Shown here: positions 9,970 to 50,617 of the stretch, piece by piece
How positions within the stretch are numbered: the first letter of the stretch is position 1
Layout: every line of letters starts with the position of its first letter
Assembly (NCBI GenBank): GCA_965250065.1
Contig: OZ252288.1
Span: 578,693-642,692, forward strand
DNA: 64,000 nucleotides
Reading direction: 5' to 3'
Source: Opitutales bacterium
GTDB taxonomy: Bacteria; Verrucomicrobiota; Verrucomicrobiia; Opitutales; UBA2995
Translations under genes and position numbers: made by a program
Notes under the pieces: model-generated
Told to the model about the DNA's origin: nothing
What the model saw: only the letters and a program-made list of their open reading frames with translations
Database searches by the model: none

Positions 9970-10127
9970 CTAGTGTGGTGTCCCAGAAATAACTTCAAAA
10001 ATACGAGCGTGCCATGAATGGCCTGGCAAGGCTGCGCGGGTGAAGCCGGGTCGACCGTTGGGGTCAGTCGTTGATTTTTGACATGAAGCCGGGTCGACCG
10101 TTGGGGTCAGTCGTTGATTTTTGACAT
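9970..10127 (+). repeat. B-type terminus fused to an A-core fragment and a 2 x 43-bp tandem duplication
   Basis: CTAGTGTGGTGTCCCAGAAATAACTT... starts at 9970. GAAGCCGGGTCGACCGTTGGGGTCAGTCGTTGATTTTTGACAT occurs at 10042-10084 and again, identical, at 10085-10127. Confidence 0.85.
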
Positions 10128-15015: not shown

Positions 15016-15372
15016 AATAGATAAAGGCTTTGGTAGAACTCAAATTAGCCCGGATGTCTCACCACACTAGATAGGGTTGAAACGATCAAGCTAGATGAGG
15101 ATGCATTTTTAAGTCAACAGTTGAACCTTGCTTCATGACACAGTTGCTCACTACCGAGCGAACGCAGATTTAAAGAAAGACCCGGATACCTACGCCATCA
15201 TCGGCGCTTTGCTGATCAATTTTGGGACACCGAGGCTTGATTACAAAAGGTTTGTCGATTCAAAACAACACCTGTGACAATCTGTGTCATCCGCGGTTAA
15301 ATTTCAGCCGATTGTATGTAACCGCAGATTTTCCTGATAATTGAGATGCGTCTCCGATCCGAGATTTGCGGG

Positions 15373-15553
15373 TTAACCCGCATGTCTCACAAAATTCGTG
15401 GCGAGCGAACGAAGGTCGAGTGCTGGTGCGGGCATCGAGCAGATTTGCGGGTGAAGCCGGGTCGACACCCTGCAAAGTCGCGAATCCAACGAGGGCCGCA
15501 CCAATGCCGACATTTCGGAGCGCAGTAGAAAATTTGTGAGACATGCGGGTTAA
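15373..15553. mobile_element. Family A foldback element (MITE/REPIN-like), full copy 1
   Basis: 181 bp. It has perfect 21-nt terminal inverted repeats TTAACCCGCATGTCTCACAAA. The two halves are imperfect reverse complements of each other. It is homologous to 31006-31186 and 63146-63327. Confidence 0.85.
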
Positions 15554-17214
15554 ACTCTCTTGCGGATCACCACCCAACCGAGCAGGCTGACTACCACCCC
15601 GACGCTGGACACCAGAACGGTTCCCATTTCAGCAAGCAGACCCAGCAAAAAAATCAGCAGTCCGGTCAATAGCACCCCGAGGCCGATTACTTTAATGCCA
15701 TGCCTGTTTTCGCGTTGAGCTTCCACATTCTCTTCCTGATTGGCTTCCAGGTCTTGCTCGGCCTGTTCTCGCTGCAATCGGGCTTCTTCGTAATTGAGGA
15801 ATTGCTCAGAAACCGGCTTACTCATGCAGGCATATATCTCGTAAGCCGCCATAAGAGTTAGTGGAAACAATACTCCCAAGGCCTGGCTCTGGGCTTGGGT
15901 CAAAACATATAGGCCATTCCATTTGAAAAAGGAATTCACCACCAGGCAAATCAAGCTGGTAGTTAAAACGCTGAACCCGGTGTGGCGTTTAGAAAAGAGA
16001 GCCCACAACATCGGAATATACATGGCCCCTCCAGTTATTGCACCCACGGCCCAGATGACACTCAGGATACCGCCCATGCGGTCCACGGACAAGGCAATCA
16101 CCATGGCCAGCGCCCCCACCGTGATGGTAGAGATTCGAGCCACCAAAATCAGCTCACGGTCACTTGCCCTCCTTTTCAGGTTCCTATAAATGTCATTGGT
16201 AAATACCCCTGATACGATGTTCAGGGTAGTGTTCACCGAACTAGCGGTGGCAAACACCATGGCGCCGACCATGAGACCCACAATACCCATCGGAAGCACT
16301 TCCTTGGACATAAACATGTAGGCATGGTTGGCCTCTCCGGCCGCCAAGTCCAATGAAGGATTATAGATCCGGTAGATCATGGGTGGCAGCATCCAGATCA
16401 CCGGACTGATAGTGTAAAGACAGCCGAAGAGCAAAGCCACCTTCCGGGCATCCTTCGGGGTTTTTACGCTGGTGTAGCGCTGAGCGTAAGCCCAGTTGCC
16501 GGCGATATAAACGAGATTATAGATTCCAAATCCAATGTAAAACAGAGGGGAGATTTCGTTGGTCGTGAGAGCGAAAAAGTCCTCCGGGGTCTTTTCCAAA
16601 AATCCGCTGACCCCGCCGACTTTGGCGAAAGCCAAGGGGATGACGATGATCACCGCCGCGGCCAGTATGACAAATTGCAATACATCGGTCACAATCACTG
16701 CCCACAGCCCTCCCGTCGCGGTATAGAGCATGATGACCAAGGCCAGAAATATTACGACGTATTCAAAAGGAAACCCAGTGGCCCCTTCCACGATTTTCGC
16801 CACCGGATACAGAAAGGCTCCACTTGTAAATACCGAGATCGCCATAAACAGGTAGGTGTAGGCCTTCTGGACCCCGGCTCCGAGCCGCGTGCCTATGAAT
16901 TGGGCGCCCGTCAATACGCCAGTCTTTCTCCACTTCGCGGCAATAAAGGCGGCAATGATGAACCCAGACAGGCACATGGTCCACTGAATGGATATGGAAA
17001 CCATGCCATGAATGTAGGCCAAAGATCCCCAGGCCACAAAAGTCCCGGCCGAAAAGAAACTCATAAATAGGGACAGGCCATTGATCCACCAGGGTACTGC
17101 TCCACCCCCGGCAAAGAAAGTCTTCATGTTCTTGCCCGACTTGCCAAACGACAATCCTGCCGTCATCACTCCCAGGATGAAAAGGAGTATCACAATGTAA
17201 TCGAGCTTGGACAT
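15550..17214 (-). CDS. Sodium:solute symporter (SSS) family transporter
   Basis: 554-aa ORF, polytopic and hydrophobic, with a typical SSS N-terminus (FFAGGGAVPWWINGLSLFMSFFSAGTFV). Its TAA stop lies inside the TTAA end of the family A element. Confidence 0.85.
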   Translation of the reverse strand: MSKLDYIVILLFILGVMTAGLSFGKSGKNMKTFFAGGGAVPWWINGLSLFMSFFSAGTFVAWGSLAYIHGMVSISIQWTMCLSGFIIAAFIAAKWRKTGVLTGAQFIGTRLGAGVQKAYTYLFMAISVFTSGAFLYPVAKIVEGATGFPFEYVVIFLALVIMLYTATGGLWAVIVTDVLQFVILAAAVIIVIPLAFAKVGGVSGFLEKTPEDFFALTTNEISPLFYIGFGIYNLVYIAGNWAYAQRYTSVKTPKDARKVALLFGCLYTISPVIWMLPPMIYRIYNPSLDLAAGEANHAYMFMSKEVLPMGIVGLMVGAMVFATASSVNTTLNIVSGVFTNDIYRNLKRRASDRELILVARISTITVGALAMVIALSVDRMGGILSVIWAVGAITGGAMYIPMLWALFSKRHTGFSVLTTSLICLVVNSFFKWNGLYVLTQAQSQALGVLFPLTLMAAYEIYACMSKPVSEQFLNYEEARLQREQAEQDLEANQEENVEAQRENRHGIKVIGLGVLLTGLLIFLLGLLAEMGTVLVSSVGVVVSLLGWVVIRKRV

Positions 17215-35580: not shown

Positions 35581-38500
35581 TCAGAACAGAAACGTGCTGG
35601 TTAAACGGAAATTGGTTGGATTCATAATCCGTATCTGAGATGGAACATCGTCGCCGGACTTTCGCGTGATGATCAGATCATCGTTATTCAAGGCATTACG
35701 GATATTCAGCTGTATTCTCCAATTTACTTTACCGTCAAAAATCTTGCGCGTGTGGTTAATCCAGAGATCGACGTTGGCTTCGTTCGGACCAAAGAGTGGC
35801 TGAGTAACATCGGCGACAGCTATTTCATCGAGACCCACCGGCAAATCGGCATCGGATGGGGTTAAAATCCCGTCCCGGAAACCGACACCCACTTCATCCT
35901 GCCAGCGATAGGCGCCACCGACGGCCCAACCTTTCAATCTGCTATCATCGTCGAAGCGGTATCTGCTAGCGAGATTGAAACGCCACTCGCGGACTTCATC
36001 CAACAGGGCCCCTTCTCTTAAGGTTCGCCTGAGAAGGAGTGACCACTGCGTACGACGAGTCTGATTGTAAATCGTATTAGCCGTAGAGGGCTCTCCCGGA
36101 TCCGGCATGCCGTTACCATTCAGATCGTCATAATCCTTATACGTGTTCGGTCGCGACAGGAGATCTCCCATGACCAGCCATTGCGGCTCACGAATCTCAA
36201 AATACTTTTTAAACGATTTCAATACATTCGTTTTGATGGCCTTCTGTTGCGCTACATTAAAAACCATGGTCCAATTGCTCGTCGGGTTCCAGACACCCTC
36301 AACTTCCACACCTTCCGATGAAAAGTCGGATACACCCGTCACGTTCGGATTCCCGCGATCGGAAACCGAAATGGCAGTCCCTGGATCCGGACCTGGATCG
36401 ACCGGAGTCCATAAAGCTTGACGCATACCCAGAGGAGGCACCGTGTAGACTTCCGCCCACTTGATGTTATTGGGCCATAACCTCGGATCATCCGGTTCCC
36501 AGGTTTCATATTCTTCTCGTGGCACCGAAGGATCCCTAGGTTCCTTCTCCTGCAGCGAACTGCGAACACCGTTGTACCACAGACGCTCAAAATTCGGGAT
36601 GCCTGAGGTACCCGCGGAACGATCGGTCTGGTTTTTCGAAACCGTCTCATACCAATTGACACGAACGTAGAAGGCTTGGTCCGGCAAGTCGATAGAGAAC
36701 CCGTATTCCTTAGTTGTTCCGGCCGGGCTTGGGTGTGGCTCGTTCAAAATAGTAATTCGGCCCGGTGACGGCACAAAGTTCTCCGACTCCCCGTAGTGAG
36801 CGCTCAAACCAATACCGAAAGGCCGCCAATTTTCAGGAAGGTGTCCCACCACACCCCAGGTAAAGACGTCGCCTTTGACAGAGTCATCGGGATCCGAAGG
36901 AAATTCCAAAGTTTCCGGAAGCGCAATCGCTTCAGCCGTAAATTCAGGACTATCATCCCGCCAGGATTCCGCCTTATCTTCGCGCCAGCCGTAGGTGGCA
37001 ACAATATTGTCGTCCAGTAAATAACTCTGGGCCACTAACGCAACCGATTCGATCTCCTGCCGATCAATCGATGCGTTGTTAACCGAATTGAGAACCAGGG
37101 GCGAACCTTCAACCTTCCGGTAGGCTCCCCTGTGTCCTTCGAAAATAGGATCAGCCGTGCTATCATAGAGAACGGCTGAGATCTCCTGTATCCTGGGATT
37201 TGGTCTTGAGGGCCCACGAGTGGCAAGTGTGCCACTGGACGGTATGCCGGTGATCCTGGGACCGAGGTAACGAATGTTCCGCGCTAACCGGTCATAGGAA
37301 GCGGTTGAGTAACCCCGTTTCCGATTCGCCTCCAGAATCCGTTCGATTTCTCCAGCGGACTGGATACCATAGGAATCCGATTCTTCGTAGACATCACGAG
37401 ACTGATTGGAAAAAAGGCCGGTAAACACGTGGCGGCCCAGCCAGCTCAATTTATCGTGGTCTCTCAGATCCAGATCGTAATACGCGGTAATTCTGAATGC
37501 TTCACGCTCGGAATTGCCGTTTGCAAAATTATCGTTGCCGCGCCTATAAGGTCTACCCACTCTTGGATTTGGAATGAGTATAGGCGTACCGTCTTCTTCT
37601 ACTTCAAAGAAGTAGCCGAAATATTCGCTCGCATCGACTGAGATATCATTTGACGCTCGTTCCAACCATCCGTCTTTTGAATTCTGTTTATCATAAACGA
37701 TTTCGACAGCCGAATTCTGGGAAAACCGTTGTTCGAGCGTTATATTAGCCGCGTCGAACGAACTGAAGGAAGTGTTTTCGGTTCCGGTCAGCGTATTGTT
37801 CCTGAAATCGAACACCCAATCGTCCTCGTCAGACAACACTGCATTGCTAATCGAGGCATTTACATCTTCCCGGTTCCTCCAGGTGTAATGCAAACGCCTG
37901 ATACCGTCAGGACCCGGGGTAGCGGGCAACGAATCAAAACCCAAGGTGGCATGCCTGTCTTCGGGGTTTTCGAAAACATACGAAGGACCACGATTGCCTG
38001 GAACTATACTCCAGCCGCTGGCGGAGCCTGGATCGGGATTCGTTTGCATTCCATTCTTTACCCAATCAGGGATATTCGAGGAGGGCGTGATAATAGGTGG
38101 ACGGCTCGCGTCTCTGCTACCGATTTCCATATTGGCGCGAATCGTCGTTGTTTCGGTTGGGGTCACCAGAAACGCGGCGTAGAGACGTCTTTCATCCTCA
38201 AAAGAGGGCTTTTGCTTAAACCGGTTCTGGTTATTCAAGCCGATAATTCTCACCGCCATAAAATCATCGAAGATGACCCGGTTGATATCGAGGATTTGGC
38301 GATTAGCCCCCCAACTACCGTAACGCAGTTTGATCTCATTTCTTTCCTCGAAGACGGCCTGCTTCAGGTTATTGTTGACGAGGCCGGCGGGACTCCCCAA
38401 TCCAAAGAGAATCGCGTTCGCGCCTTTGGCAATGGTGACGCGGTCGGTGTTGTATGTATCGAATCCTATATCCGAAAGAAAGTAACCGCGAGTTCGGTCG

Positions 38501-38898
38501 GGCTCTGCCAGACCGCGTACGCGAGCACGCCCATTGGGATCACGCCGGTCACCGCCCCCGGCTCCAAAGTTTCCGTCCGGACCGGATACCTCGGTGTTCG
38601 TGGTGTAGAGAAACAAATCCTCAATATTGGTGGATCCCGTGTCCTCGAGGAAATCCTCTGTCACTACCTGAACCGCTCCGGCGAGATCCTTCAGATTGGA
38701 TCTGAGGCGTGTTCCAGCCAAGGTGTTAGTCGCCGCGTAGCCACTATCTTCCTCGCCCGTGATGGTGAAGGGAGACAATTCGAAGATATCTTCCTCTTCC
38801 TCTTCTTGCGCCAGAACTTGGGAAAATCCAGCCGGCAATACCAGCATCAACCCGGTAACCAGCGCGCAAATGTTTTGTTTTAATTCATAGGTGTTCAT
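35581..38898 (-). CDS. TonB-dependent outer-membrane receptor (Verrucomicrobia type)
   Basis: 1105-aa ORF with a signal peptide. It has an acidic linker then FELSPFTITGEEDSGYAATNTLAGTRL (plug domain), a beta-rich body, and a C-terminal ...RLTSTFLF. Confidence 0.85.
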   Translation of the reverse strand: MNTYELKQNICALVTGLMLVLPAGFSQVLAQEEEEEDIFELSPFTITGEEDSGYAATNTLAGTRLRSNLKDLAGAVQVVTEDFLEDTGSTNIEDLFLYTTNTEVSGPDGNFGAGGGDRRDPNGRARVRGLAEPDRTRGYFLSDIGFDTYNTDRVTIAKGANAILFGLGSPAGLVNNNLKQAVFEERNEIKLRYGSWGANRQILDINRVIFDDFMAVRIIGLNNQNRFKQKPSFEDERRLYAAFLVTPTETTTIRANMEIGSRDASRPPIITPSSNIPDWVKNGMQTNPDPGSASGWSIVPGNRGPSYVFENPEDRHATLGFDSLPATPGPDGIRRLHYTWRNREDVNASISNAVLSDEDDWVFDFRNNTLTGTENTSFSSFDAANITLEQRFSQNSAVEIVYDKQNSKDGWLERASNDISVDASEYFGYFFEVEEDGTPILIPNPRVGRPYRRGNDNFANGNSEREAFRITAYYDLDLRDHDKLSWLGRHVFTGLFSNQSRDVYEESDSYGIQSAGEIERILEANRKRGYSTASYDRLARNIRYLGPRITGIPSSGTLATRGPSRPNPRIQEISAVLYDSTADPIFEGHRGAYRKVEGSPLVLNSVNNASIDRQEIESVALVAQSYLLDDNIVATYGWREDKAESWRDDSPEFTAEAIALPETLEFPSDPDDSVKGDVFTWGVVGHLPENWRPFGIGLSAHYGESENFVPSPGRITILNEPHPSPAGTTKEYGFSIDLPDQAFYVRVNWYETVSKNQTDRSAGTSGIPNFERLWYNGVRSSLQEKEPRDPSVPREEYETWEPDDPRLWPNNIKWAEVYTVPPLGMRQALWTPVDPGPDPGTAISVSDRGNPNVTGVSDFSSEGVEVEGVWNPTSNWTMVFNVAQQKAIKTNVLKSFKKYFEIREPQWLVMGDLLSRPNTYKDYDDLNGNGMPDPGEPSTANTIYNQTRRTQWSLLLRRTLREGALLDEVREWRFNLASRYRFDDDSRLKGWAVGGAYRWQDEVGVGFRDGILTPSDADLPVGLDEIAVADVTQPLFGPNEANVDLWINHTRKIFDGKVNWRIQLNIRNALNNDDLIITRKSGDDVPSQIRIMNPTNFRLTSTFLF

Positions 38899-39283
38899 TT
38901 CAAGTTACTCCTTAAGTTGTGTTCCAGTATTTTTCGAGCCGTCGAGCGTGGCTCTGTTCAGCAATTATTTAATAACCATCCAAACCGCAGACAGAAAGGC
39001 AAGATGTAGGAAGGTCGACAGTTGACTATTGCTATTATTGCGCTAATTAACCGGAAAAAAGGGCAAAAATAGAGGAAAACAGCAAAATCCGAGTCAGCAA
39101 CAGACGCGAGCTTTGGTGTATTCCGTGGTTTATCAAAAGCTTGACCACGGATGGGCACGAAGGCACGGAGGCACACATGGGCAGGCGCGATGGCGGGTGG
39201 TGGGCCTGCGGCCTCGGTAGCAAAAGGAGGATGCAGTGCTGTTTCTTTTAACTAAAACATCGTCACTTGTGACTGGATGCCTT

Positions 39284-39373
39284 CCGCCTTCAATGAGTTA
39301 CGGCGTGACAGGTCCGCCTTCAATGAGTTACGGCGTGACAGGTCCGCCTTCAATGAGTTACGGCGTAACAGGT
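39284..39373 (+). repeat. 3 x 30-bp perfect/near-perfect tandem repeat
   Basis: CCGCCTTCAATGAGTTACGGCGTGACAGGT occurs at 39284-39313, 39314-39343 and 39344-39373. The last unit differs by one base. Confidence 0.9.
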
Positions 39374-39610
39374 CGGCAACAGGAAAAACTTTTTTTGTGA
39401 GTAGCCACTACCGAGCCCGTAAAGGCGACATGATCACCAGAAAACAAAAGCACAAAACACTCAAAACTCATCTTGTGGTTTCAGTCCCTTGAAGGTCTTC
39501 CCGTTATAAATTTACCGGCTTTTGAACGCTTTCGATCACGACCACGATATTCTTCAGGATCTTTTCATCTCAGCATCTTGTTAACTCTGTAAATATCTTG
39601 TTCGCGAAGC

Positions 39611-40017
39611 GATCCTGTTCTGGCGAAGCCGGATCAAGCGCAGCGTTGTTCAATATTACCACCCAAACTTTAAGTGAAAAAACTCATCCTTTGAATAGCC
39701 ACTACCGAGCCTGTAAAGGCGATATGATCACCAGAAAACAAAAGCACAAAATATCACAAAACTTTCCTTGTGGCTTCTGTGCTTTCTGTGGCTAAAAATC
39801 CCTGTCCATCCTGTGCATCCATGTTTCATTTATTCGGGAGAAATATCTTGTTCGCGAAGCGAATGTTCCGGTTCAATAAATGCCCGGTCTGTTATGTTGG
39901 TGTCGCTCCGCTCGAAACTGCGCTTCGCTTGTAGATGTGTCACTGTTTTCTTGAGATCATGTCGCTCTGTTCGGAACGTTCGGTAGTTGAGGTGTCGTCG
40001 CATCCGCTCCTCGGTAG
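39611..40017 (+). repeat. 407-bp composite repeat block (modules E, D, C), copy 1
   Basis: It is colinear with 50211-50617 at a constant offset of 10600 bp. There are no indels and I counted 10 mismatches (about 97.5% identity). Confidence 0.9.
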
Positions 40018-40225
40018 TCGGTCACATTCGCTCCTTCGGAACTATTGCGGTGAAGCCGGATCAAGCGAAGCGTTGTTCAATAATATTTCTCAACATCGTC
40101 ACTTGTTGAGGTCTCACCATGCCCGCGCCAGTGCTCGATCTTCGTTCGCACGCCACGAAGTGGGTGATGTCGCGTTCGCTCGGTAGGGGGCTGTCGCGTT
40201 AGCTCGGTAGTGAGATATGCGGGTT

Positions 40226-40269
40226 AAAAAAAGCGCCCCAAGTGATCCCCCTCATTGGTCACTTGGGGC
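40226..40269 (-). terminator. Intrinsic terminator downstream of exoD
   Basis: On the minus strand, an 11-bp perfect stem (GCCCCAAGTGA / TCACTTGGGGC) with a 13-nt loop is followed by GC and a T7 run. It lies about 95 nt after the exoD stop. Confidence 0.7.
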
Positions 40270-40362
40270 TTTGATGAAGAGACCTAAAGCTGACTAAGTC
40301 ATGTCTACATGCGAACCCTGCTATAAAGTGTGTAGTGATGCAACTAGAAAATTTTTATACTT

Positions 40363-41028
40363 TCATCTTCCCTTGGAAAACCAACTCTTGGCGATCTCCA
40401 TGAGTTGATCCACTCCCTGCAGACCGTAGTAACTGATGGCAGTGAAAGCAGCCAAGTAAAGCAACACGGCCAAGACAGCCAAAATGCAAGACAAGAGCAC
40501 ACCCAGTCCGTCGTCTTCAGTCAGGGCGACCCCAATTACAAATATGACCATGGCAGGCGCCGTATTAGTGAGGGGGATGGGTATAATCATAAGCGCGGCC
40601 ATAGTGATGATCAATATGCCGGCAATCAGGTGTCCGCTCCGTGCCAGCACCCACCCCCACCGCGGTTTAATGAGGGGTTCGACGCGTTTAAAAAATCCCA
40701 CGGCCGCGCCAATCATTTTCTGCGCCAGTTTGCGCCCGATTTTTTTCTTGATGGCCCATTTTGGTAACCAGGGAGTTTGACGCCCAACCATCAGCTGCAG
40801 GGCGAGGATGCTGATCACTACCCCGAAAGGCGTACTGTACCCGGGAGCTGGCACCGGCAAGGCGCTGGGCAAAGACAGAACTATTAAAAGCAAGCCGAAC
40901 CCCCGATCGCCCAGAGCCTGGATAAGATCACCCATTTCGATTCCGGCTTCATCACCATGGGAAAGCAGGTTTTTGAGGTCGGTGGACAGGTGAGAATGGC
41001 TCATGGTTGGATAGATTGCTGTTTGCAA
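40363..41028 (-). CDS. exoD: Exopolysaccharide synthesis ExoD-family membrane protein
   Basis: 221-aa ORF. The region GDLIQALGDRGFGLLLIVLSLPSALPVPAPGYSTPFGVVISILALQLMVGRQTPWLPKW matches recalled ExoD family features. Confidence 0.7.
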   Translation of the reverse strand: MQTAIYPTMSHSHLSTDLKNLLSHGDEAGIEMGDLIQALGDRGFGLLLIVLSLPSALPVPAPGYSTPFGVVISILALQLMVGRQTPWLPKWAIKKKIGRKLAQKMIGAAVGFFKRVEPLIKPRWGWVLARSGHLIAGILIITMAALMIIPIPLTNTAPAMVIFVIGVALTEDDGLGVLLSCILAVLAVLLYLAAFTAISYYGLQGVDQLMEIAKSWFSKGR

Positions 41029-41088
41029 TATTTGTGCTTTTGCCGCAAGGTTCTTTTGGGAAACCAGGCGAGAAAAGGGGTCTATCGA

Positions 41089-41136
41089 GATGCTGAGATG
41101 CTGAGATGCTGAGATGCTGAGATGCTGAGATGCTGA
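41089..41136 (+). repeat. 6 x 8-bp microsatellite GATGCTGA
   Basis: Counted directly. Related CTGAG-rich words recur at 42825-42870, 43026-43060, 48295-48320 and 55497-55530. Confidence 0.9.
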
Positions 41137-41741
41137 GAATCAAAGGCACAGGGGCTTTTCTAAATGAAACATGGATGCACAGGATGAACAGGATTTCGGT
41201 AGACCGTTCCGAGGGAGCGAAAGCGACCGACTACCGAGGAGCGGATGCGACGACACCTCAACAAGCGAAGCGTAGTTTCGAGCGAAGCGACACCAACATA
41301 ACAGACCGGGCATTTACTGAACCGGAACATTTTTGCCCACTTATCCTGTCTATCCTGGCCATCCATGTTCAATCCTCCAAGCAAAGAATTGGGGTTGGTG
41401 GAAGGCGTCTACCGAGGGAGGTTGTGACGACACCTATCCGTTTTTGAGTGTAATTTGTTGTCGTGATCGTTATTGAACCTTTCAAAATCAGGGTGTTCAC
41501 ATTATTCGATCAAGATCATGATCAAGATTAAGATTAAGAGGCCTTTGGGGCTTTCAAGGGGGCCTACCGAGAGTTACGGAGGAAAGGGTCAAACCTTAAA
41601 TCCTGCACTGGCGTGCACGATTTGGGGGTTTCGGACTTGGGCCTTGGTAGCAAGAAATGAACCCGACCCTGCATTGGCATACAAGATGGCGGGGTGTCGG
41701 ACAGAGTGCATTTTTTTCAAACTTCGTTTTAGCATAATTTA

Positions 41742-42344
41742 ATGACAGGATCTATTAAATACGTGGCAATTATGGGCGGCGCCTTTGATCCTGTTCACCT
41801 GGGGCATCTGGCTTTGGCGAAGGACGCATTTGCCGGGCTGGACCTGGATGCCGTTTGGTTTGTCCCCACCGCCCAGTCGCCACTGAAAGACAATGTGCCC
41901 GGGCTGGATGATGTGGGCCGCCTGGAACTTTTGCAGGCGGCATTGGCGAATTTTCCGGATTTTCGAATTTGCAAAGCCGAGCTGGATCGCGGGGGCATAA
42001 GTTATACCATCGATACCGCCCGTCAGTTGATTGGCGAGTATCCCGGTACCGAATTCAGTTGGATAATCGGAAGTGACCAGGTAAAACTTTTGCATAAATG
42101 GCGTGAAATACACGAGCTGGCTAAACGGATTCGTTTTATTGTGGTGTCACGTCCGGGATTTAAGCTAGTTCCTCCCAGTCCCGGTATTTCCGGCTTGCGG
42201 CTTCAAATCGTTGCTTCCCGGCTACTCGATATCTCCTCTACCGACATCCGGCTCCGAATTGCCGCAGGAAAATCAGTGAATCATTTATTGCCAAAACCGG
42301 TTGCCGATCTTATTATGGAGCGAAATTATTATTTGAATTTATAG
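41742..42344 (+). CDS. nadD: Nicotinate-nucleotide adenylyltransferase
   Basis: 200-aa ORF with GGAFDPVHLGHL (HxGH motif) and ISSTDIR. Confidence 0.9.
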   Translation: MTGSIKYVAIMGGAFDPVHLGHLALAKDAFAGLDLDAVWFVPTAQSPLKDNVPGLDDVGRLELLQAALANFPDFRICKAELDRGGISYTIDTARQLIGEYPGTEFSWIIGSDQVKLLHKWREIHELAKRIRFIVVSRPGFKLVPPSPGISGLRLQIVASRLLDISSTDIRLRIAAGKSVNHLLPKPVADLIMERNYYLNL

Positions 42345-44125: not shown

Positions 44126-44445
44126 ACAGATTCCGGGTTATGAATAATCAGTTTGCAATTGCCTAGCTAAAAAGAGCGTTGGCATGAATTTTATGACAGG
44201 CTCCAGGCAAGTTCGATAGACTTAACCTGGATATCTCACTTACCGAGCGAATGCGACATCTTCCAAATTCGTAGCGAGCGACATCTTCCAATTTCGTCTT
44301 AATTCTCCTTATTTTCAGTCGGGAACCAACTTGGAATAGACCATTTGATCGTTGACATTTTCTCCGGTCTCAAGATTCGACCTATTATGCTCGCCAAACC
44401 TCCGGAATTTATCTGCCATGTTTGGTCTCAAATCTCACTAAGGGG

Positions 44446-48047: not shown

Positions 48048-48429
48048 ATCGCGTCCGGGACATTCTGGTGTGCCTTTTTTTACCACAGAGGACACCGAGG
48101 GCACAGAGATGCTGGATGCTGGATGATGAGGGACCGAGATGCCTGGGGATTATCGTGATCGTGATCGAAATGCACAGGAGCCACAAGATGGGTTTTGGGT
48201 TTTTTTAAGAAAACGTGGATGTAGAGGATGCACAGGATTTTGTTATGGGGGAGGAGATAAACCACGGATGGGCACGGATGCTAAGAGTCGCTTAGATTCT
48301 GAGGTACTGAGATTCCGAGAAAAAGGCGCGAAGAGGCATCTCCGAACCTAGTGTGGTGTCCCAGTAATAACTTCAAAAATATAAATCCATCGATCCAAAT
48401 CCTGTATATCCTCTTCATCCATGTTTCAT

Positions 48430-50210: not shown

Positions 50211-50617
50211 GATCCTGTTCCGGCAAAGCCGGATCAAGCGCAGCGTTGTTCAATATTACCACCCAAACTTTAAGTGAAAAAACTCATCCTTTGAATAGCC
50301 ACTACCGAGCCTGTAAAGGCGATATGATCACCAGAAAACAAAAGCACAAAATATCACAAAACTTTCCTTGTGGCTTCTGTGCTTTCTGTGGCTAAACATC
50401 CCTGTGCATCCTGTGCATCCATGTTTCATTTATTCGGGAGAAATATCTTGTTCGCGAAGCGAATGTTCCGGTTCAATAAATGCCCGGTCTGTTATGCTGG
50501 TGTCGCTCTGCTGGAAACTGCGCTTCGCTTGTAGATGTGTCACTGTTTTCTTGAGATCATGTCGCTCTGCTCGGAACGTTCGGTAGTTGAGGTGTCGTCG
50601 CTTCCGCACCTCGGTAG
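50211..50617 (+). repeat. 407-bp composite repeat block, copy 2
   Basis: See 39611-40017. The upstream blocks 49941-50062 and 39154-39283 are also homologous. Confidence 0.9.

Follow-up and report, generated by a model that had tools for sequence, protein, structure and literature searches.

The DNA analysed here is a 64,000-nt stretch (the window) of the genome of an Opitutales bacterium (GCA_965250065.1, contig OZ252288.1, positions 578,693-642,692, forward strand). It carries three full copies of a short non-coding repeat, here termed family A, amongst ordinary genes that encode sodium:solute symporters, a LacI regulator, enolase-superfamily enzymes and sulfatases. An initial annotation made from the sequence had described a foldback repeat in three copies, and both the positions of the copies and the details given for their ends were found to be correct. 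[quoted passage not shown] The copies are laid out as follows:

15373..15376, no strand: left target-site duplication of copy 1, TTAA
15377..15549, plus strand: body of copy 1, 173 bp, with terminal inverted repeats at 15377-15396 and 15530-15549 (nhmmer E = 3e-60)
15550..15553, no strand: right target-site duplication of copy 1, TTAA
31006..31186, plus strand: copy 2, CTAG, 173-bp body (31010-31182) and CTAG, with T at position 8 of the terminal inverted repeat in both arms
63146..63327, plus strand: copy 3, CTAG, 174-bp body (63150-63323) and CTAG

The body of family A is 173 bp long and non-coding, and it is bounded by terminal inverted repeats (TIRs) of 17-20 bp (CCCGCAT[G/A/T]TCTCACAAA...), which in the window copies match perfectly over 17 of 17 positions and at 19 of 20 overall. 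Position 8 of the TIR is G in both arms of copies 1 and 3. The three copies are roughly 87% identical, with a mean column identity inside the element of 86%; the flanks are unrelated, and the similarity ends exactly at the ends listed above. The window contains 15 occurrences of the end motif, CCCGCATNTCTCAC, where 1.6 would be expected. Each copy folds as one long hairpin, with RNA minimum free energies of -95, -103 and -108 kcal/mol for copies 1, 2 and 3. The comparison with shuffled controls that the initial annotation had proposed bears the fold out, with z values of about -9 to -10 (-9.1, -10.4 and -9.5 respectively against dinucleotide shuffles, and -8.8 for copy 1 with DNA parameters). 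Open reading frames (ORFs) that overlap the window copies run on into unrelated flanks, and bases 15550-15552, within the right duplication of copy 1, are the stop codon of a sodium:solute symporter ORF (15550-17214, minus strand).

A wider sample was obtained by scanning a species-representative genome collection with the exact 23-nt loop pattern, which gave at least 88 matches; all of those listed fall in six metagenome-assembled genomes (MAGs) of the Opitutales/Opitutia. Since the scan demanded this pattern exactly, the invariance of columns 82-104, the 23-nt loop, is uninformative. From the six Opitutales genomes together with the window, 70 non-redundant full copies with both ends present were assembled. 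The TIRs are conserved in these 70 copies, 45 of which have the canonical length (180-183 bp with flanks), the remainder carrying insertions of 24-120 bp or deletions. Stop codons occur in all three plus-strand frames of the element in 43-45 of the 45 canonical copies. The copies are dispersed and their flanks unrelated, and in four cases presence or absence differs between related genomes; one of the six MAGs, CBDCML01, is 93% identical to window positions 37591-39026. Crude ORF calls gave a neighbour on each side for 62 copies; 60 of these are intergenic, with convergent genes flanking 25 of the 60. The duplicated four bases, whose pattern YTAR holds a stop codon on both strands, contain the neighbour's stop codon in about 20 of the 60 intergenic copies, including the symporter gene beside copy 1.

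Several side observations concern orientation. The genes whose stop codon adjoins an element approach its right end 16 times and its left end four times, and TTAG duplications outnumber CTAA duplications by 14 to 6 in element orientation; these asymmetries suggest a possible orientation preference of the elements. Measured against local GC skew, orientation showed no bias (32 vs 37). The complement strand is free of stop codons in two of its three frames in 42 of 45 copies, and the strand as written has stops in all frames.

The four bases that adjoin the element are a duplicated target. In the window both TTAA and CTAG are palindromes, so that a direct and an inverted repeat are indistinguishable there, and it is the larger sample that separates them. 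The 4-nt flanks are identical in 44 of 70 copies (CTAG 15, TTAG/TTAG 14, TTAA 7, CTAA/CTAA 6, GTAG 1 and CCAG 1). Twenty copies carry non-palindromic direct pairs, and the reverse-complement pairing TTAG/CTAA was found in none of the 70. Four orthologous empty sites were found in related genomes: three hold a single 4-mer between the same flanks, and the fourth keeps TTAG, 10 nt of the end and AG, which is a deletion remnant. The direct-repeat flanks and the single 4-mer in the empty sites together identify the flanks as a target-site duplication of YTAR (CTAG, TTAG/CTAA, TTAA). The initial annotation had read TTAA...TTAA in copy 1 and CTAG...CTAG in copies 2 and 3 as co-variation between the arms, and had suggested a survey of flanks that would tell a YTAR target from none; the survey found YTAR duplication, and the reading of these bases as arm co-variation finds no support. 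Flank columns 1/178 and 4/181, which co-vary as identities, ranked first and third among the pairs in a mutual-information scan. Duplication of TA only, at CTAG, as in IS630, was also considered; it predicts complementary inner flank bases and is ruled out by the 20 TTAG/TTAG or CTAA/CTAA copies.

Once the flanks are set aside, the co-variation of the arms proper is genuine, both at TIR position 8 and deeper in the stem. In the 45 canonical copies position 8 is G-C in 19, A-T in 13, T-A in 5 and other or unpaired in 8; the A-T state is found on two different internal backbones in two genomes and the T-A state on at least three backbones. Further inside, columns 77/109 are C-G in 29 copies and G-C in 13, columns 58/128 are C-G in 19, U-G in 12 and G-C in 8, and columns 45/140 are U-A in 25, U-G in 11 and C-G in 6. 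Over 56 stem pairs in 45 copies, 97.5% of cells are paired, and changes on both sides were seen in 11 pairs and 54 cells. Not one column shuffle out of 500 reached any of these measures, and when the partners were slid by 1-3 columns only 33-48% of cells paired, with at most nine double-change cells. The arm co-variation proposed in the initial annotation therefore stands for position 8 and for internal stem pairs, beyond shuffled and slid controls, and falls only for TTAA/CTAG; changes in the two arms are correlated in the alignment of 45 copies.

Whether the fold is favoured on one strand in particular was gauged from changes that affect the two strands differently. One-sided transitions retain pairing on the version of the hairpin formed by the window plus strand in 22 events and on the opposite version in 8, and the three one-sided variants carried by more than four copies all keep the plus-strand-version pairing. 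In a strand-neutral count, mirrored mismatches in the consensus number seven G.T and five A.C. Given these counts the evidence for strand-specificity of the fold is modest. When mirrored positions are defined in a strand-neutral way, seven switches from one Watson-Crick pair to another are frequent and nine occur in single copies only.

The same end was sought outside family A by scanning metagenome contigs for YTAR plus the 17-nt end, with a non-T required at position 20 in order to skip family A, and at least 120 loci were retrieved. At 30 of the listed loci an IS1380-family transposase lies just inside the TIR, and about 19 are complete elements, 1.59-1.83 kb long, in which an inverted copy of the end closes the far side and YTAR borders the element at each end. 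The reference insertion sequence (IS), L090 177-1911, is 1735 bp long and has a 470-aa ORF that scores 503 bits on PF13701 and 390 bits on NF033539 (IS1380 family transposase; NCBIfam cut-off 180 bits). Its ends, CCCGCATTTCTCACAAAA and CCCGCATTTCTCACAAAT (...AAAT), match the two ends of window copy 2 exactly over 18 nt. IS1380-family elements have a short target duplication of 4-5 bp and, in ISfinder, CC termini, and the IS1380-type traits of family A are its 4-bp YTAR duplication and its CCCGC termini. The initial annotation had raised two further possibilities, namely a link to IS5-type elements and an origin as a fragment of a longer annotated IS; the ends were found to match IS1380-family elements instead, and family A is not a fragment of a longer IS. 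Three loci were examined as candidate longer elements and rejected: L083 (947 bp) has a peroxiredoxin gene between a chance TIR-like match and a half copy, and L046 and L008 have solo ends.

The metagenome scan also returned 29 other small elements of 89-238 bp, which have the same end and YTAR flanks and unrelated interiors. The majority form one hairpin whose pairs all span the centre, at z = -8 to -19 relative to simple shuffles. Eleven divergent members of one second family, 164 bp long and unrelated to family A apart from the TIR, could be aligned. In this family 91.5% of cells are paired, and changes on both sides occur in 29 of 57 pairs and in 81 cells; none of 500 shuffles reached these values, and in the slid controls such cells numbered no more than 28. 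A conserved hairpin recurs among the MITEs that carry this end.

Family A has the properties of a MITE: it is shorter than 600 bp and without coding capacity, has TIRs, a target duplication and single-copy empty sites, and is present in many dispersed, polymorphic copies. It is very probably a MITE of Opitutales that shares its ends and its target with a clade of the IS1380 family, which is related to piggyBac. Having no gene of its own, it must depend for movement on a DDE transposase that acts in trans and recognises its ends. The element inserts at YTAR and duplicates those four bases. On the proposed mechanism, an IS1380-type enzyme in the same cell would have moved these copies, as their ends suggest, and the chemistry, by analogy, may be piggyBac-like. 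The hairpin would persist either through correction of one arm by the other or through a failure to spread further in lineages that have lost it.

Several results weigh against this reading. The likeness between family A and the IS1380 elements is confined to the 17-18-nt TIR and the target, and the arms are not visibly derived from an IS; the full-length ISs have inverted repeats of only about 17 nt, so the long arms of the MITE are not inherited IS ends. The metagenome ISs overlap none of the Opitutales loci. No transposase of any TIR-type family was found in the window (Pfam scans, 28 window ORFs), and a tblastn search with the IS1380 protein found none in the 88 Opitutales loci (about 700 kb). 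A search of the same 88 loci for multi-copy ORFs or DNA recovered only an IS110-family element, which is irrelevant to an element with TIRs and a target-site duplication. The flanks are non-identical in 26 of the 70 copies. Finally, six of the approximately 19 full-length ISs (L141, L136, L195, L176, L167 and L187) differ from the MITEs in having reverse-complementary flanks, TTAG...CTAA or CTAA...TTAG, which could be due to chimeric short-read assembly across a multi-copy IS or to carry-over of donor overhangs at a degenerate target. The IS110-family element is a 1017-bp repeat (L006 368-1384 and L034 1-1017, 100% identical, MAG CBDCML01) that encodes a 310-aa transposase (PF01548 + PF02371), and in L006 a gap of about 25 nt separates it from a family-A copy's right end.

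As reasons for the keeping of the hairpin, selection on the fold in propagating lineages and arm-to-arm correction are roughly comparable in standing, with a host-level RNA function less likely. It is quite possible, though less likely than not, that the co-variation is an unselected mutational by-product, in which template switching or mismatch correction in an extruded hairpin copies one arm onto the other; the element would still be a MITE. Template-switch mutagenesis at quasi-palindromes is an established bacterial mutation mechanism. The nine Watson-Crick double changes confined to single copies compare with about one expected from independent hits (a rough estimate), the symmetric states of position 8 come up repeatedly and on different backbones, and the second, unrelated family behaves in the same way. 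On the other hand, sampling is sparse, and changes that appear in a single copy may be shared by copies outside the sample. Arm copying also sits poorly with the persistence of G.U (G.T) pairs, of which there are six or seven in the consensus and polymorphisms in 19, 12 and 11 copies, and with conserved mismatched or bulged sub-terminal segments that have not been homogenised. Nor would it predict the bias of one-sided transitions towards pairing on one strand (22 vs 8 events).

Selection on a single-stranded fold is favoured by the high frequency at which G.U pairs are tolerated and by the 22-to-8 excess of one-sided transitions that retain pairing on the plus-strand version. If the fold is selected in lineages that propagate, the foldback could be a working part of the transposon, such that MITEs with an IS1380/piggyBac-related end need the folding of a strand in order to spread; this stronger proposition is speculative and unlikely. 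A single strand exposed during replication could fold, the TIRs pairing to present a substrate to the transposase, and two unrelated families that share the 17-nt end would on this account keep about 57 base pairs by compensatory change.

Selection might also act at the level of the host, on an RNA that serves as a structured 3' untranslated region, an RNase III or stability site or a small RNA, with transposition accounting just for the spread. Compensatory changes and tolerance of G.U pairs are consistent with such a role, copies lie mostly at the 3' ends of genes, and there is a precedent in the bcr1 repeats of Bacillus, which are transcribed and whose RNA fold is kept by compensatory changes (PMC3184786). 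In 45 of 45 copies the strand as written in the window also has a fold about 15 kcal/mol more stable than that of its complement, but these copies share ancestry and are not independent events, and the consensus holds G.T and A.C mismatches in the ratio of only 7 to 5. The orientation signal relative to the upstream gene is weak and, if anything, contrary to a read-through role (10 sense vs 18 antisense in tandem contexts, 4 vs 16 where a stop codon adjoins). Scans for sigma-70 promoters and intrinsic terminators found no consensus inside the element, and Rfam 15 gave no match at gathering score for the whole window and none at E <= 1 for copy 1. A host-level RNA function is unlikely.

That family A is a MITE of the IS5 family is very unlikely. 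Ends of the IS5 family typically begin with G in ISfinder tables, whereas the termini here begin CCC, and every transposase found beside this TIR belongs to the IS1380 family (30 loci, NF033539 and PF13701). The 4-bp YTAR duplication would suit it, in that IS5 duplicates 5'-YTAR-3' (PMC5009759) and IS711 uses YTAR (PMC2266754). An element of REP/PATE type, moved as single-stranded DNA by a Y1 (HUH) transposase and so without a true target duplication, might be suspected from the long hairpin, the tetranucleotide adjoining the ends and the strand asymmetry of folding, but is scarcely credible given direct 4-bp repeat flanks of which one copy is left in empty sites, ends that form a perfect 17-bp inverted repeat rather than distinct sub-terminal hairpins, and the match of those ends to DDE-type IS1380 elements. 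Palindromic elements of the REP/RAYT or IS200/IS605-derived kind have no target duplication and consist of a short GC-rich palindrome or of distinct sub-terminal hairpins, and the 173-bp hairpin with its 4-bp duplication does not belong with them.

Amongst known systems, the IS1380 family (IS1380, IS1247, ISEcp1 and the L090 clade) is the closest. The terminal 17-18 nt are identical (CCCGCATTTCTCACAAA A/T), and the L090 clade shares YTAR directly outside both ends, the 4-bp duplication and termini starting CC. Family A differs in being 173 bp long with no ORF and an unrelated interior, and its arms pair over about 85 nt as against IS inverted repeats of about 17 nt. The duplication made by IS1247 is reported to be 5 bp (PMC3281130).

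The termini of piggyBac read CCC...GGG, as do those of family A. Transposases of the IS1380 family have been placed as the prokaryotic outgroup for piggyBac (PMC10813416), and piggyBac inserts at TTAA, duplicates it and excises seamlessly via end hairpins and 4-nt overhangs (PMC7351741). Family A likewise has a duplicated four-base target centred on TA, TTAA being one of the YTAR forms, and its empty sites are clean and seamless-looking, as piggyBac chemistry would give (PMC7351741). Its target, however, is the degenerate YTAR with CTAG commonest, TTAA accounting for only 7 of 44 perfect duplications; the associated transposase is of the PF13701/NF033539 type and not of the piggyBac type, and the host is a bacterium. 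The relation to piggyBac is one of resemblance and not of membership.

The classical MITEs Correia/NEMIS of Neisseria, RUP of Streptococcus, ERIC and Nezha of cyanobacteria are, like family A, non-coding elements of 100-200 bp with TIRs, a short target duplication, numerous intergenic copies and the potential to form hairpins (PMC3184786, PMC2229807, PMC10969869). They differ from it in sequence and host phylum (here Verrucomicrobiota), in the 4-bp YTAR target (Correia and RUP duplicate TA) and in the IS1380-type ends. The bcr1 repeat of the Bacillus cereus group is similar in its length of about 155 bp, its short direct-repeat flanks and a structure kept by compensatory changes (PMC3184786), but it has 5-bp direct repeats, a two-stem cruciform-like RNA and transcription that has been shown, whilst family A forms one long hairpin. 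A blastn search of the element against plasmids gave no match, and a literature search in which few matches were gone into returned no description of MITEs from Verrucomicrobia or of MITEs derived from IS1380.

Besides the three full copies, the window holds a number of derivatives of family A. The initial annotation had listed seven solo ends; all of them exist, yet only that at 60980-60997 is a true solo end, the others belonging to composite or truncated copies or to a fragment. Those at 57721-57739 and 58170-58186 bound a single composite copy of 466 bp, and those at 8789-8806, 33358-33375 and 40211-40227 are the left termini of longer or truncated derivatives that retain the family-A left arm. 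The derivatives and the small module that recurs in them are as follows:

8441..8805, minus strand: composite derivative, TTAA and left TIR, then three tandem 24-25-nt modules
33358..33535, plus strand: left part of a composite or truncated copy, TTAA and degenerate TIR, 24-nt modules in tandem, left arm as far as the loop
35425..35494, plus strand: degenerate right half of a copy, repeat family D8 (nhmmer E = 5e-9)
40115..40227, minus strand: truncated copy, TTAA and left TIR, two 24-nt modules, part of the left arm
44222..44300, plus strand: short degenerate fragment, TTAA and TIR-like end, one 24-nt module, truncated arm
57722..58186, plus strand: composite copy that has the two ends of family A, TIRs at 57726-57739 and 58169-58182, flanks TAAA and TTAG
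60980..60997, minus strand: solo end, TIR and TTAA, fused to the 3' end of the PF08003 methyltransferase ORF 60017-60997
8735-8790 (minus), 33376-33448 (plus), 40160-40205 (minus) and 44240-44262 (plus): module TACCGAGCGAACGCGACATCACC, found also in loci L027, L031, L032, L056, L059 and L074

The 24-25-nt module (TACCGAGCGAACGCGACATCACC) follows the TIR directly, singly or as a tandem of up to three. Other Opitutales genomes have 197-bp variants with just one module, and its behaviour is that of a very small repeat for which the end of the MITE is a target or a place of expansion. In the composite at 8441-8805 the modules are followed by the left arm (8637-8720), a loop that holds about 125 nt of foreign repeat modules and the right arm (8451-8509), and the element closes with a different terminus (CTGGGACACCACACT). 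The interior of the composite at 57722-58186 has been replaced or expanded by other small repeat modules together with an (AATTCCT)x7 run. At 8510-8636 and 57786-58140 the apical loop of family-A copies contains further short repeat modules (CGGGGTCATTCCTT..., GGTTTGACCCCTT... and others), which turn up in other parts of the window too; the genome's intergenic DNA is a patchwork of modules of this kind. A second end type, CTAG|TGTGGTGTCCCAGAAAT, likewise adjoins CTAG and was seen at 9970-9995, 33572-33597, 48348-48373, 8441-8466 and 15058-15070; it stands in place of the family-A right end in the 8441-8805 composite and is probably a related class of MITE or IS end. At the solo end, the last six codons of the CmoB-like PF08003 methyltransferase ORF, stop included, come from the element (GTG AGA TAT GCG GGT TAA). 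The left flank of copy 1 (15362-15376, GATTTGCGGGTTAA) resembles the decayed right end of an older copy, whose duplicated TTAA may have been the site at which copy 1 later inserted.

Other repeats in the window were noted in passing. Short tandem arrays comprise (AATTCCT)x7 at 58080-58127, inside the composite copy, and (GAGATGCT)n at 41085-41135, upstream of an ORF at 41130. There are two internal duplications, one between 1-810 and 27773-28585 (91% identity), which covers paralogous genes of the DUF1552 family, and one between 39611-40017 and 50211-50617 (97.5%), a non-coding repeat of 407 bp. GC skew and the orientation of long ORFs both flip at about 39-41 kb (within window positions 36000-42000), with minus-strand genes to the left and plus-strand genes to the right; the cumulative skew has its minimum at 36-40 kb, and the region of the flip is dense in small repeats. 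A replication origin could lie here, or the flip may simply mark a divergent junction.

For the Opitutales, whose genomes have been little studied, family A explains a large share of the intergenic repeats. It also carries a warning for annotation, as ORFs called across copies are spurious and the ends of genes can consist of the ends of elements, as at 60980-60997. Family A ties a MITE family to IS1380-type transposases with a TA-centred four-base target and CCC/GGG termini, which are otherwise features linked with piggyBac; should the chemistry also prove seamless, such a bacterial system could serve as a genetic tool. Two unrelated families with the same end and strong compensatory evolution provide material on why MITEs are so often hairpins, for which the candidate causes are selection on a single-stranded intermediate or on RNA, or palindrome-driven correction between the arms. 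A requirement for the foldback, if true, would mean that bacteria harbour structure-dependent amplification of MITEs tied to a piggyBac-like enzyme. What is of residual interest is the strongly conserved foldback in unrelated MITEs that share an end, together with the piggyBac-like features of the ends and targets of these bacterial ISs.

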